10,201 nt of DNA from a virus. Every line of letters starts with the position of its first letter. Within the stretch, counting starts at the first letter, position 1. The notes beneath the pieces are model-generated. The model was given only the letters and a program-made list of their open reading frames with translations, had not been told where the DNA came from and searched no databases. Positions 1,320 to 5,980 of the stretch are shown here, in pieces. Where the stretch lies: the UHGV virus genome UHGV-1546769. One strand, 5' to 3'. The translations under genes and the position numbers were made by a program.

Positions 1320-1709
1320 TCAGGCGGCTGCACCCGCCGTTTTCTCGTACTTACTGATAGTGATCTCGACCTTCCCTTCCGGGATAACCGGCCCCCACTC
1401 CACCAGCATTCTTTTCACCTGGCTGTCGTCTTCCCACACCCCCGCGTGGGTCAGGGCGTCAAACAGCGCCTTGTTATAGTTGTCCAGATCGCGGATCCGG
1501 TTATCCGGAGGAAACAACACGATCTCCACTGAAGCAGGTGCCGACGTTGGTTTCGGCAGACGACGTAACTGCTCAACTATTGCTGCGCACGCCGCGCTCT
1601 GGAATTTTCGCCCCGCCTCGCTTATCAGGCTTTTACCTACAAACGCCCCTTTGTTGGGGTGTCGCCAGTACGTGTTCACGCTGGGCGGAAAAGGCAGTAT
1701 TAGCTTCAT
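1320..1709 (-). CDS. rusA: Crossover junction endodeoxyribonuclease RusA (Holliday junction resolvase)
   Basis: 129 aa. LPFPPSVNTYWRH near the N-terminus and the acidic motif RIRDLDNYNKALFDALTHAGVWEDDSQV match the RusA family (catalytic Asp cluster DLDN). The ATG at 1709..1707 overlaps the upstream TGA at 1708..1706 (ATGA), suggesting translational coupling. Confidence 0.9.
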   Translation of the reverse strand: MKLILPFPPSVNTYWRHPNKGAFVGKSLISEAGRKFQSAACAAIVEQLRRLPKPTSAPASVEIVLFPPDNRIRDLDNYNKALFDALTHAGVWEDDSQVKRMLVEWGPVIPEGKVEITISKYEKTAGAAA

Positions 1710-2034
1710 ACTTTCAGGCCCCTCTCATGTAACCAGTGAGTTGCACGCAGCCTTGCGTTTTCCTCACCGGCAAGCAGTGAGCGGATAATCCCGACCGCCT
1801 CGCTGTCGTCGTCCTTCACCGCGGTATGAAGCGTTATCCCCCGGGCCACACCACGCTTTATCGTGATGACGCCTTTTTTCTCCAGTGCGCGAAGATGCTC
1901 CACCGCTGCATTCACCGAACGGTATCCCAGCATGGTTGCCACCTCCTGATTGGTTGGCGGAAAGCCACGCTCTTGCTGGTAAGAAATCAGCATATCCAGC
2001 ACCTGCTGCTGGCATTGAGTTAACGTCGTCATGC
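1706..2034 (-). CDS. LexA N-terminal DNA-binding-domain protein (winged HTH only, no S24 peptidase domain)
   Basis: The C-terminal 108 aa of track ORF 1706..2263, MTTLTQCQQQVLDMLISYQQERGFPPTNQEVATMLGYRSVNAAVEHLRALEKKGVITIKRGVARGITL, follows the E. coli LexA N-terminal domain pattern (LTxRQQEV.D.I...GxPPTxxEIAxxLGFRSxNAAEEHLKALxRKGVIEI..GxSRGIRL) almost position for position. I chose the internal ATG at 2034..2032 because GGAG lies about 7 nt upstream; the 77 residues upstream in the track ORF are low-complexity and overlap the methyltransferase frame. Confidence 0.6.
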
Positions 2035-2669
2035 CGCCATCTCCCTGACAAGTTTTTCTGCCTGCTGGCGAACGCCTCACCACATGCCTCAAGTTCATCG
2101 CGCCCGATGTAGCTGATTGCCGGTCCCTTCCAGGTCTTGTCGAAAACAGCAATAGCACCAGCGAAGAAAGCGCCTGTCGGCACCTGCTTCTCATCCTTCG
2201 GGATAAACCAGGCAGGCAGTTCAAAACCAATACGCCCGCGAATAAAAGCAATATGGTCCGCATCTTCCGGCCACCACACTTCGCTGGTGGCCGCTTTGAT
2301 CAGGAAAACATAGCGCCCGCCCTTATCACGCATGGCACTGGCATGTTTCATGATGTAACGCATGCCGGTGATGTATTGCCCCTCATGCTGACTGGCGCGG
2401 CTGTATGGGGGATTACCAAAGGCAGCACCTTTAAGCTCCGCAAGACGTTCTGACCAGTCATGCGCCAGCGCGTTGTCTTCCGCCGTGTAATACGCGGCAC
2501 ATTTGGCGTTATCACCGTCAGTGAACAGATCCAGAACAAACGGACCAAACAAGGTGTTAATTCCCCAGAAAATGTTGTCCGGCGTGCGCCACTGATCGCC
2601 CACTTCCTTCAGTTCATGGGCTGGTTTGTTCCGCAGTTCTACCAGCGCCTGGCAATATTTATTACTCAT
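1764..2669 (-). CDS. Phage-type DNA N6-adenine methyltransferase (Dam-like), 3' end uncertain
   Basis: The N-terminal ~190 aa carry the GDQWRTPD motif and the catalytic FGNPPYSR (NPPY/DPPY) motif of N6-adenine methyltransferases. ATG at 2669..2667 follows a GGGGG stretch. The frame stays open to 1764, but the last ~90 aa are Gly/Arg-rich low complexity (GGGNHAGIPFGECSGGASSRTGEKRRHHDKAW...) and overlap the LexA-like gene in another frame, so the true C-terminus is doubtful. Confidence 0.75.
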   Translation of the reverse strand: MSNKYCQALVELRNKPAHELKEVGDQWRTPDNIFWGINTLFGPFVLDLFTDGDNAKCAAYYTAEDNALAHDWSERLAELKGAAFGNPPYSRASQHEGQYITGMRYIMKHASAMRDKGGRYVFLIKAATSEVWWPEDADHIAFIRGRIGFELPAWFIPKDEKQVPTGAFFAGAIAVFDKTWKGPAISYIGRDELEACGEAFASRQKNLSGRWRHDDVNSMPAAGAGYADFLPARAWLSANQSGGGNHAGIPFGECSGGASSRTGEKRRHHDKAWCGPGDNASYRGEGRRQRGGRDYPLTACR

Positions 2670-2761
2670 TAAGCCCCCACGTAAAAAGCATCCGCAATGT
2701 CTCCGGAAGTACAGCCCGGATGGGCTTCAATGAATTTCTGAACGTCATTTAACAGACTCAT
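2669..2761 (-). CDS. Candidate 30-aa small protein (not in the ORF track)
   Basis: Hand translation of the minus strand gives MSLLNDVQKFIEAHPGCTSGDIADAFYVGA*. Its ATG (2761..2759) lies 2 nt after the O-like stop TGA (2766..2764), and its TAA stop (2671..2669) overlaps the methyltransferase ATG (2669..2667) as TAATG. It fills the only gap between those two genes exactly. Confidence 0.3.
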   Translation of the reverse strand: MSLLNDVQKFIEAHPGCTSGDIADAFYVGA

Positions 2762-2763
2762 GA

Positions 2764-3756
2764 TCACCCCCTGAATCCTGCCGGGATCTGGCTGTAGTCC
2801 ACGTTGTCGTAACTGGCTTTGAAGTACGGGTCTTCACGTTTTTCTGTGTGCGTGCTGACGGACGGCGATAAGCGCAGGGAAAGCTCATCCCATTTTTCCC
2901 GCAACTTCGACGGGCTGAGCACGTTACGGCACCAGAACGGATCGCGGCTGACGCGGCTGTACATCTCGCAGATTTGTTTGTGAGTACGACCATCCTGCAC
3001 ACACATCAGGCGAATTTCGTTTGCCCATGCTGTCCAGTTCGGTTCTTTGGGACGAACCACCTCGCCGTCACATTCGGCGGCCTGCTCGTACAGGGCGATG
3101 ATTTTTTTCCAGAGCCACTGTGCGCAGGTCAAATCATCCTGCGTTCCCCACTGGCGCTTTTTAGGGCTGAATACAACCGCATCAGGATGGCGAGTTAAAA
3201 ACTCCTGTTCAGCCGTTTGCGTGTCCGGTTGCGAAGCGTCCGGACGAGAAGAGGTTTTATTCTCTGTAGTAATCTCTGTTGTATTCTCTGTAAGATCATT
3301 GGGCCATTTTGACCCGATGACAGCGTGTCGTTTTGAACCAATGGATCGTGTCATTTTGCGCCCATCCATCAGGTCACTTTGACCCGATGGAGAGGTGCAT
3401 TTTGACCTGATGGATTCGTTCACTTTGACCTCTTCTAAAAGCTCACTTTCATAGTTGATCGTGTAGAAGTTGGTCATGTCACGCTTCGATTTATTGAGTT
3501 GCTCGCGACGCAAAACCCCAAGTGATTTCAGGCTTGCAAATGTGCGTTTCAGAGTGGACTCTGACCAGAACGGAAACTGCTCCAGCCACTGTTCTGTCGT
3601 GTTATAAACCCAGCGAATTCCGCCATGCTCAGTGCCTGAATTCGTTTCATTCAGCCAGTAATGAAGCTGCTGCAACACAATTGCCTCATTCAGACCAATA
3701 CGGCATGCAAGATCACGATTTATCACAATGGGCTGGGATGTCATTAACAGGCTCAT
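2764..3756 (-). CDS. Replication initiator protein, lambda O-like, with the origin embedded in the gene
   Basis: 330 aa. It sits where O sits in lambdoid phages (after cro and a cII-like gene). The N-terminal region looks like a winged-helix DNA-binding domain, the central Thr/Glu/Asn-rich linker coincides with the iteron array and AT-rich repeats, and a separate C-terminal domain follows, which mirrors lambda O architecture. ATG at 3756..3754 with GAGG 6 nt upstream. Confidence 0.8.
   Translation of the reverse strand: MSLLMTSQPIVINRDLACRIGLNEAIVLQQLHYWLNETNSGTEHGGIRWVYNTTEQWLEQFPFWSESTLKRTFASLKSLGVLRREQLNKSKRDMTNFYTINYESELLEEVKVNESIRSKCTSPSGQSDLMDGRKMTRSIGSKRHAVIGSKWPNDLTENTTEITTENKTSSRPDASQPDTQTAEQEFLTRHPDAVVFSPKKRQWGTQDDLTCAQWLWKKIIALYEQAAECDGEVVRPKEPNWTAWANEIRLMCVQDGRTHKQICEMYSRVSRDPFWCRNVLSPSKLREKWDELSLRLSPSVSTHTEKREDPYFKASYDNVDYSQIPAGFRG
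3255..3300. repeat. AT-rich segment with three ATYCTCTGT repeats next to the iterons (candidate DNA unwinding element)
   Basis: Copies at 3259-3268 (attctctgta), 3272-3280 (atctctgtt) and 3283-3292 (attctctgta) in a locally AT-rich stretch. In the direction of O transcription it lies immediately after the iterons, as the AT-rich region does in lambda ori. Confidence 0.4.
3304..3432. repeat. Replication origin iterons: six direct repeats, consensus about tCAyTTTGACCCGATGG, period about 23 bp
   Basis: Repeats read directly at 3304-3320 (ccattttgacccgatga), 3327-3344 (gtcgttttgaaccaatgg), 3350-3367 (gtcattttgcgcccatcc), 3373-3390 (gtcactttgacccgatgg), 3396-3413 (tgcattttgacctgatgg) and 3419-3432 (ttcactttgacctc). 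They lie inside the O-like coding sequence with regular spacing of about two helical turns. Confidence 0.7.
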
Positions 3757-3925: not shown

Positions 3926-4104
3926 AGGACTGTCTCCTTCTGCCGGTTGAAATCACCCACAGCCCACTCTGCAAAGCTGTGGGTTACAATTTCCCTGTCA
4001 CCTGGTACATTCACTGCATAGCAATACTCCACCTTCGCTTTTCCACCCGGTACAGGAAGCGCAATCAGTTGCGAGCGACGGTAGTGTGTTGTTAAACTGT
4101 TCAT
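3766..4104 (-). CDS. Hypothetical protein, translationally coupled to the CII-like gene
   Basis: 112 aa. The ATG at 4104..4102 overlaps the upstream TGA at 4103..4101 (ATGA), with GGAG about 10 nt upstream. The N-terminal half ([28 protein letters not shown]) looks protein-like; the C-terminal half is Ser/Thr/Asn-rich and overlaps the better-looking 70-aa frame. Stop TAG at 3768..3766 lies 10 nt before the O-like start. Confidence 0.45.
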
Positions 4105-4685
4105 GCGTTAGTTTCTCCACAACCAGAAGCAATCGACGCCACGACGCCCGGAGCTGCACACTCGCGGGCGTTACTCTTTTCCGGCGCACAAAAAACACGA
4201 AATAACAGTGTTAAATGCTCCTGCCACTTCGCCATTACTTGGTAGCTGTTCTCTTCGATTTGCTCACGCTCAGCCTGGTCAATAACTCCATCAGCAGTTG
4301 CCTTGCGTAAGTACTGGGAATGCTTGCCAATCCATTCTATTGACTCCATCAGCCGCTGATTAATGTCACCATTGTCAATGTCATCAATGACCACCAGCGG
4401 CACAAACACCCCATTACTACGACGGGCTATTGCATCTGTTACATGCCTGGTACCACTGGCATCCTGTAAAACCATGGCCCACTCAAGTGGAAAAATTTGA
4501 TCCCCACCGCTACGCAGTCTGTTATGCAATTGATCTTTTGCTGGGGTGATATCATCAGATTTATACAAACCAAGAATTTCTGCTGCTTCCTCATAGCCAT
4601 GAGGTAAATCAGCAATCGTTCTTCGTATTGCTGCCACCAGCCATGCTGGTTGTTTATCAACTTTCCATTCAGGTTCTTTACCCAC
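4101..4685 (-). CDS. CII-like regulatory protein (YdaT-like: CII-type N-terminal region with a C-terminal extension)
   Basis: 194 aa, second gene after cro. The segment [42 protein letters not shown] resembles the lambda CII HTH region (AEAVGVDKSQISRWKRDWIPKFSMLLAVLEWG). The start is GTG at 4685..4683 with GAGGA about 8 nt upstream. The last ~25 aa are low complexity. Confidence 0.55.
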
Positions 4686-4712: not shown

Positions 4713-4910
4713 TTATGCCGCAGCACTGTTAGTCTTTTGATATAAAGACACGTCAACTTTCAGTTTCCCGTTAGTAATTTTTTCTAACTGGTACGCTCGG
4801 CCTTCAGGAATAATCTCAGGCCACTCTGAAACAGACGGATGCTTAATACCTAGGGCTTCGGCGGTTTTACAAACTCCGCCGAAATAATTAATCACGTCGG
4901 ATTTCCGCAT
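4713..4910 (-). CDS. Cro-like / YdaS-family HTH regulator
   Basis: 65 aa, divergent from cI across the operator region. The segment GGVCKTAEALGIKHPSVSEWPEIIPEGRAYQLEKITNGKLKV fits the YdaS/Cro-like small HTH pattern. ATG at 4910..4908 with GGGAGA about 6 nt upstream. Confidence 0.75.
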   Translation of the reverse strand: MRKSDVINYFGGVCKTAEALGIKHPSVSEWPEIIPEGRAYQLEKITNGKLKVDVSLYQKTNSAAA

Positions 4911-5005: not shown

Positions 5006-5659
5006 ATGATGAACATGAGTGATCGTATTCGCCAAAGGCGAAAAGAACTGAACCTGACACAACAAGCACTGGCTGATTTGACTGGTGTGAACCGTGTCAC
5101 GGTTACTGGATGGGAAAAGGACGACTACCAACCAAATGGAGCCAACCTTCAAGCCCTAGCCAACGCACTTAAATGCGATCCTCTGTGGCTTGTTAGCGGA
5201 AAAGGCTCGCCTGAACCAAAGATAAATCTAAAACCTGAAATATTCGCAGTTAAAAAAGTCCCCCTCATCTCGTGGGTTCAGGCGGGTTCATGGACAATGA
5301 CGGAGCCTGGTGTCAGGAAAGAAGATGCTGAAGAGTGGGTTTATACTACCGCCCTTGTATCAGAAATGGCATTTGCACTACGGGTCCGTGGTGATTCAAT
5401 GACCAATCCCCTCGGCTCACCATCGATACCAGAAGGTTCTATCGTTATCGTAGAGCCAGATATTATTGATACAGAGTGTATTAACGGAAAAATCGTTGTT
5501 GCCCATATCAATGGTGGGCAAGAAGCGACACTCAAAAAATTTGTTGAGGACTGGCCGAACAGGTATCTCGTCCCACTAAATCCTAACTATAAAACTATTG
5601 AATGCGGTGAGAACTGCAGAATAGTTGGTCTTGTCAAACAAGTAATAATGGATTTTTGA
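5006..5659 (+). CDS. Prophage CI-type repressor (N-terminal XRE-family HTH plus C-terminal S24 LexA-like autopeptidase domain)
   Basis: 217 aa. HTH region RRKELNLTQQALADLTGVNRVTVTGWE; candidate Ala-Gly autocleavage site in SWVQAGSW; S24 catalytic Ser motif VRGDSMTNP and Lys in ATLKKF. Three in-frame ATGs at 5006, 5009 and 5015 with only a weak AGGA upstream, as for leaderless or weakly initiated cI transcripts. Confidence 0.9.
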   Translation: MMNMSDRIRQRRKELNLTQQALADLTGVNRVTVTGWEKDDYQPNGANLQALANALKCDPLWLVSGKGSPEPKINLKPEIFAVKKVPLISWVQAGSWTMTEPGVRKEDAEEWVYTTALVSEMAFALRVRGDSMTNPLGSPSIPEGSIVIVEPDIIDTECINGKIVVAHINGGQEATLKKFVEDWPNRYLVPLNPNYKTIECGENCRIVGLVKQVIMDF

Positions 5660-5780: not shown

Positions 5781-5933
5781 TTAGAGTTGTGGTGAATGCG
5801 CAGGCTGATGCGCGAAAGACATTGCAGCTATTGCGGAAAAGAGCTGTTCGGCGGGGCAATTAAACGCCCGTGAGAGTCTGAAATAACCGCAAGCCGGAGA
5901 TCAGCACCGGTCACCACAACAGCCACTGCTTTG

Positions 5934-5980
5934 GCGGTACCAGTTTGTACACTCGCTTCCGGCTGGTACCGCTCTTTTTA
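5934..5980 (+). terminator. Candidate intrinsic terminator or regulatory hairpin in the pL leader
   Basis: Perfect 10-bp inverted repeat GCGGTACCAG (5934-5943) and CTGGTACCGC (5964-5973) with a 20-nt loop, followed by TCTTTTTA (5974-5980). It lies in a ~340-nt untranslated leader between pL and the first substantial gene. The segment CGCTCTTTTTA also resembles a boxA element. Confidence 0.4.

Follow-up and report, generated by a model that had tools for sequence, protein, structure and literature searches.

The window analysed here is a stretch of 10,201 nucleotides from the virus genome UHGV-1546769, and the short open reading frame (ORF) under study sits in the early-right operon of a lambdoid prophage. 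Read along the minus strand, the gene order is Cro, CII-like, O-like, the 30-codon ORF, Dam, LexA-like, RusA and KilA-N (Table 1). The first-pass annotation of this DNA had described an ORF of this length wedged between an O-like gene and a methyltransferase gene without giving its strand, which is minus, and both of the neighbours it named were borne out by profile matches (phrog_391 upstream and PF05869 downstream). The O-like protein had no match in Pfam or NCBIfam. In the early-left region, a 182-aa ORF on the plus strand (window 5931-6479), flanked by the genes for the CI-like repressor and for YfdQ (DUF2303), had no Pfam match.

Table 1. Positions of the 30-codon ORF, its signals and the surrounding genes in the window.
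Feature	Position	Strand	Remarks
CI-like repressor	5006-5659	+	
Cro	4713-4910	-	
CII-like	4101-4685	-	
O-like replication initiation protein, 330 aa	2764..3756	-	phrog_391 'replication initiation O-like', E=1.3e-101
GGGGG Shine-Dalgarno-like run	2767..2771	-	5 nt 5' of the remnant ATG; inherited from yfdN
Remnant ORF, GTG form, 32 aa	2669..2767	-	GTG, taken by PGAP as the yfdN start, overlaps the TGA of the O-like gene (GTGA)
30-codon remnant ORF, ATG form + TAA	2669..2761	-	YfdN residues 3-28 fused to 161-164 (164-aa GTG numbering)
Deletion junction GCTTTT/TACGTG (minus-strand reading)	2683..2684	.	396 bp of yfdN missing
GGGGG Shine-Dalgarno-like run	2674..2678	-	4 nt 5' of the Dam ATG; within the last yfdN codons, spared by the deletion
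Phage Dam N6-adenine methyltransferase	1764..2669	-	PF05869, E=2.6e-45; 301 aa instead of 217
LexA-DNA-binding-domain protein, next operon gene	1706..2032	-	PF01726, E=2.6e-19

The ORF is packed as a gene of an operon would be. The TGA of the O-like gene (2766-2764) is followed by two bases (TC) and then by the ATG of the ORF (2761-2759), from which 30 sense codons (MSLLNDVQKFIEAHPGCTSGDIADAFYVGA) run to a TAA (2671-2669) whose last A also opens the Dam ATG (2669-2667). The arrangement is TGA-TC-ATG on the upstream side and TAATG on the downstream side, and each ATG is preceded by a G-run, at a distance of 5 nt for the ORF and 4 nt for Dam; an alternative GTG start lies at 2767-2765. The start 2 nt past the O-like stop and the overlap of the TAA with the methyltransferase ATG, on which the first-pass annotation had built its case, are therefore both present in the sequence as described. 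The upstream context of the start is conserved across 66 copies of the same allele, which are treated below. We also considered an RNA element over the ORF and rejected it, given that there were no Rfam matches in the whole window and that the local fold had a z-score of -0.26.

We compared window positions 2450-3000 with phage and E. coli genome collections by megablast and obtained mostly two-piece matches, which spanned ~947 bp instead of 551; the gene found between the O-like gene and dam in the matched loci was yfdN, also named 'PerC family transcriptional regulator'. Three related loci were taken for alignment with the window. Aligned with yfdN of the K-12-type and C288 prophages, the window has an in-frame gap of exactly 396 bp (132 codons) inside the 495-bp gene, and the flanks of this gap are identical and gap-free on both sides. 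Read from the GTG, the ORF consists of YfdN residues 1-28, residues 161-164 (YVGA) and the native stop, with codons 29-160 gone, and the last 15 nt of yfdN, including the Shine-Dalgarno run of dam, are left intact. It lies where the full-length gene lies, between the O-like gene and dam, and both of its ends align with that gene without gaps, which shows its descent from yfdN. Profile searches against PHROGs agree with this placement: the ORF product matches phrog_23071 (E=5.7e-13) and phrog_1324 (E=4.2e-11), in both cases through its N-terminal amino acids 2-28 only.

Because the deletion spared both ends of the gene, yfdN itself is the source of the start 2 nt past the O-like stop, of the Shine-Dalgarno run and of the TAATG overlap, and these alignments show that the packing of the ORF is inherited by descent from yfdN and is not a product of chance. 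We regard it as highly probable that the 30-codon ORF is a pseudogene-like remnant of yfdN and not a small gene of its own. The proposal of a real, translationally coupled small gene thus stands in one part and falls in another: the coding and coupling architecture is genuine (start, Shine-Dalgarno run and stop/start overlaps), but the signals belong to the 164-codon yfdN. Stops or frameshifts at homologous positions in related prophages, which the first-pass annotation had named as evidence against the frame, were not encountered, but only because the relatives have at that position a far longer gene that is read in the same frame.

Of the two forms, the long one is clearly the ancestor from which the short one derives. 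The opposite polarity, in which yfdN arose through a 396-bp insertion into a small ORF, draws only on the fact that both forms have identical ends, and it is effectively refuted by several observations: such an 'insert' would have to start partway through a winged-helix fold and run to 4 codons short of the stop, the long form is conserved full-length across genera at 67-85% identity, and the short form has a single junction, shows essentially no divergence and was found in none of the GTDB species-representative genomes in a scan for the junction. As to how the deletion came about, the junction (window 2684|2683) has a microhomology of only ~1 nt; we therefore rejected a repeat-mediated deletion and favour a single illegitimate-recombination event. 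One such event would have taken out 396 bp (codons 29-160) in frame and thereby fused codons 1-28 of yfdN to its last four codons and native stop, leaving a remnant that keeps the yfdN ribosome-binding site, the start beside the O-like stop and the TAATG overlap with dam. Since one identical junction with almost no microhomology is found throughout, we infer that the deletion occurred once and that the allele then spread among lambdoid prophages through homologous recombination of its flanks.

What the deletion removed can be judged from the domains of the full-length protein. Full-length YfdN matches PF06069 (PerC) at amino acids 100-151 (E=7.8e-09), a domain that lies wholly inside the deleted segment, and the 32-aa remnant has no Pfam match. 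On the 172-position profile phrog_1324 ('transcriptional activator'), full-length YfdN aligns at positions 14-166 and the remnant at positions 14-40. We gathered YfdN homologues, aligned 18 of full length that came from E. coli, Salmonella, Hafnia and Citrobacter (69-94% identity), and predicted the structure. The AF2 model of YfdN (mean pLDDT 76.7) has an N-terminal domain with pLDDT of ~86-90, composed of H1 (2-15), H2 (21-27), H3 (33-46) and a beta-hairpin wing (49-62), followed by a C-terminal part with a disordered linker (65-85) and a three-helix bundle (92-150) that represents the PerC domain. In a Foldseek search of the N-terminal domain against the PDB, the top matches were nearly all winged-helix DNA-binding domains (SmtB/ArsR, MarR, BlaI/MecI, PadR and Fur/PerR; ~60 residues at 1.6-3 Å), with weak E-values of 2e-3 at best. 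Sub-threshold MarR-type sequence matches over amino acids 7-70 (BilQ in NCBIfam, and PHROGs) were also detected, and PGAP gives the name 'MarR family' to another truncated yfdN copy, which agrees with a winged helix. The N-terminal 95 amino acids of YfdN had no Pfam match at E<=10, and full-length YfdN had no match among PDB sequences.

The YfdN-derived part of the remnant ends at residue 28, after H2, and the predicted H3 and wing that complete a winged helix are missing. In the 18-member alignment, the columns S41, K42, L43, R44, R48, V49, G55, R59 and H60, all beyond the junction, are invariant. Mapped onto the model, the deletion takes away the recognition helix and the wing, then the linker and all of the PerC domain, and the remnant keeps only helices 1-2. 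Neither folding nor DNA binding is likely for a peptide in which these two helices of an interrupted winged helix are joined to YVGA. Judging from the signals that the remnant retains, translation into such a peptide of 30-32 amino acids probably continues, although this product would have no DNA-binding fold and no function of its own.

Several homologues depart from the 164-aa form in other ways. Some proteins of 120-127 aa cover 99-100% of the query at ~73% identity (P0100, P0104, P0107 and P0108), probably reflecting shorter linkers, and a few yfdN copies in IMG/VR carry premature stops at codons 109, 111 or 115; these length variants and premature-stop copies indicate that yfdN decays in more than one way. 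A homologue from Citrobacter freundii (P0135) has the C-terminal tail '...DDVNTMPAAGAGYADFLP', which is nearly identical to the out-of-frame tail of the frameshifted Dam ORF in the window ('DDVNSMPAAGAGYADFLP', ~2030-1980, minus strand). The peptide that the two tails share comes from reading the start of the LexA-like gene in another frame, which suggests that in the genome of P0135 yfdN directly abuts the LexA-like gene and has lost its own stop.

To follow the deletion allele across genomes we used a 40-nt junction probe for which megablast seeding was possible only across the junction. Of the 5426 complete E. coli genomes, 116 matched this probe (122 places) and 2588 matched a separate probe for the deleted segment (3233 places); the deletion allele accordingly accounts for ~3.6% of places, and ~96% hold the 164-codon gene. 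The E. coli backgrounds of the deletion allele include O157:H7, O111:H8, O103:H2, O91:H21, ETEC, UPEC, and poultry and cattle isolates, and the allele is found at differing chromosomal positions and 3' of different replication genes. Phage cdtI, in its deposited genome, has the identical junction, as do 62 contigs of IMG/VR. The exact 30-aa peptide occurs on 108 contigs in the protein collection, as a 'hypothetical protein' in records of E. coli and Salmonella enterica. E. coli EC02 (NZ_CM169499.1) carries the deletion allele (3919468-3919507) together with full-length yfdN (2858234-2858628) in different prophages, which means that the two forms can co-reside.

These records also bear on whether the ORF was unannotated, as the first-pass annotation had it. 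That description fits the cdtI record, in which the authors left the ORF unannotated, but RefSeq/PGAP has a pseudogene feature in all four of the deletion-allele loci considered (4/4), and the peptide has been deposited under the name given above. The pseudogene features, for example ASE18_RS27590 of strain YD786, have the same sequence and junction as the remnant and are worded 'hypothetical protein; incomplete; partial in the middle of a contig; missing C-terminus'. The feature is already known and already flagged by RefSeq, and there is nothing new in kind about it. The sole refinement offered by our analysis is that the lesion is an internal in-frame deletion retaining both termini, and not a C-terminal truncation: PGAP says that the C-terminus is missing, whereas the remnant actually keeps the native last four codons and the stop.

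We examined selection on the remnant in 66 copies of the deletion allele, comprising the window, five annotated loci and 60 IMG/VR contigs, chosen by an exact match to 20 nt at the junction, and compared them with 115 full-length yfdN copies. All 66 have an intact 30-codon frame and start, and they fall into eight haplotypes. The variable sites are nt 9, 12, 45 and 48, which are synonymous, nt 18 (D6E), and nt 89 (A30D, in two copies); the variants at nt 9, 12, 18, 45 and 48 also segregate among the 115 full-length copies. Within the first 78 nt (codons 1-26), the 66 copies have no change that is private to the deletion allele relative to the 115. Since full-length yfdN segregates for every variant seen in codons 1-26, the copies give no evidence that selection acts on the remnant itself. 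The comparison indicates that in these 78 nt the deletion allele carries polymorphism which is either ancestral or brought in by recombination, and which selection on full-length YfdN has shaped. A dN/dS-style test of the remnant was dropped, as the two sets share all variants in the 78 nt and leave no post-deletion signal. With no substitutions private to the deletion allele and a sample conditioned on the exact 20-nt junction, neutrality and constraint are not distinguishable from these data. Rare variants in the protein cluster, each from a single contig (C17R in an invariant column, L3I in a nearly invariant one, and L4M), hint at relaxed constraint.

The same data were considered in light of a bona fide small gene, that is, a functional 30-aa microprotein that might modulate replication or host functions, or that might interfere with full-length YfdN through helices 1-2. 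An intact frame in 66 of 66 copies, a widespread allele (E. coli, Salmonella-labelled records and cdtI) and an exactly in-frame deletion are points also expected of a retained functional ORF, and the intact start, the Shine-Dalgarno run, the stop-start overlap, the many backgrounds and the genomes that hold both alleles, such as EC02, can be read in the same way. However, the ORF stems from a single deletion within a two-domain gene, with one junction and a winged helix cut after helix 2; it is a minority allele alongside the long form; it matched no independent small-protein family; all of its variation in the first 78 nt is common to the parent gene; and the rare variants C17R and L3I fall in columns of the full-length family that do not vary or hardly vary, respectively. 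We consider a functional microprotein very unlikely. In particular, nothing supports the first-pass suggestion of a small protein modulating replication or host functions, in that the ORF is a minority, internal in-frame deletion allele of yfdN with one shared junction.

A second possibility is that the in-frame deletion has been kept by selection in cis, with translation to the native TAA needed for coupling into dam and the downstream genes. The O-like gene, yfdN, dam, the lexA-like gene and rusA are linked by overlapping stops and starts, and the deletion amounts to exactly 132 codons while sparing the last 15 nt with the dam Shine-Dalgarno run. In phage SfV (U82619.2), furthermore, -35/-10 signals for dam are annotated at 1076-1102 of the locus used here, in the 3' part of orf40 (yfdN). 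As these signals lie within the deleted 396 bp, the putative internal dam promoter would be lost in the deletion allele and dam would rely on upstream transcription and translation; in the window we found no promoter-like site and no minus-strand terminator adjoining the remnant. Nevertheless, the promoter in the SfV record is annotated but unverified; the deletion happened once, so that an in-frame outcome has a chance of 1 in 3 and there are no independent deletions for comparison; and dam is itself frameshifted in this window, such that coupling into dam is not being preserved here. We therefore find a selected role in cis unlikely, though less so than a functional microprotein. For a pseudogene-like remnant of yfdN, coupling of translation into dam probably persists as a by-product, given the retained overlap: ribosomes ending at the remnant TAA would reinitiate on dam, and the deletion may be tolerated for this reason.

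The Dam lesion is a separate feature of this window. Relative to two related loci, the dam gene has a 13-bp deletion near its 3' end (window 2064-2081, junction 2074|2073), and the resulting frameshift makes the ORF read out of frame across the LexA-like gene, the start of which normally overlaps the Dam stop (ATGA). A probe across the 2074|2073 junction had a full-length match in none of the 5426 complete E. coli genomes, and the lesion is either private to the source of this genome or a sequencing or assembly error.

Local recombination is evident around the remnant. None of the complete E. coli genomes has the window intact; the best matches cover 84-89% of its length at 98.5% identity. Strain YD786 agrees fully with the window (100% identity) in the 551 bp around the remnant but is only 97.6% identical over the surrounding 5.9 kb, a difference that we attribute to local recombination. 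In many phages and genomes whose replication gene is a different one, the match begins only at query position 162 (window ~2839, inside the 3' end of the O-like gene), which indicates that the last ~75 nt of the O-like gene together with yfdN and dam form a module common to different replication modules; window ~2839 marks a mosaic recombination boundary.

The closest known entity is YfdN itself, encoded in the CPS-53 (KpLE1) cryptic prophage of E. coli K-12, with orthologues in SfV (orf40) and SfII and under the RefSeq name 'PerC family transcriptional regulator'. The remnant shares with YfdN the slot between the O-like gene and dam, the start region, the Shine-Dalgarno run, the last four codons and the TAATG, and its first 26-28 codons are identical to those of the sampled E. 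coli copies or differ only at D6E. Unlike YfdN, it has none of residues 29-160, which make up the recognition helix and wing of the winged-helix domain, the linker and the PerC domain in full. Parent yfdN belongs to the same Pfam family (PF06069) as the regulators PerC of EPEC and Pch, the PerC homologue of EHEC prophages, and like the EHEC Pch regulators it is prophage-borne; in contrast to both, the remnant contains no part of the PerC domain. YfdN has been called 'the K12 unique PerC homologue' (PMC5931665), and only passing mentions of its function, such as that one, were found in the literature; the PchE papers make no statement on whether PchD or PchE are of the YfdN type. The remnant is a pseudogene of the PerC/YfdN family, and not a functional member of it.

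These results serve mainly as a caution: a tiny ORF may fit perfectly into an operon, with an abutting stop, a TAATG overlap and a good Shine-Dalgarno run, and this is still no evidence that it is a new small gene, since an in-frame internal deletion of a larger gene gives exactly that picture. Comparison with relatives settles the choice between a small gene and a deletion remnant in one step. It also reveals that the RefSeq wording 'missing C-terminus' is slightly inaccurate, as both termini are present. We see only a slim chance that the allele is not neutral, either as a microprotein (helices 1-2, for instance interfering with a co-resident YfdN) or as an adaptive loss of a PerC-type regulator that keeps the coupling to dam; if that were so, its spread over E. 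coli pathotypes, Salmonella-labelled records and cdtI would reflect selection. For the prophages themselves, the finding means that a PerC-type regulator is evidently dispensable enough for a null allele to circulate at a few percent among lambdoid prophages.
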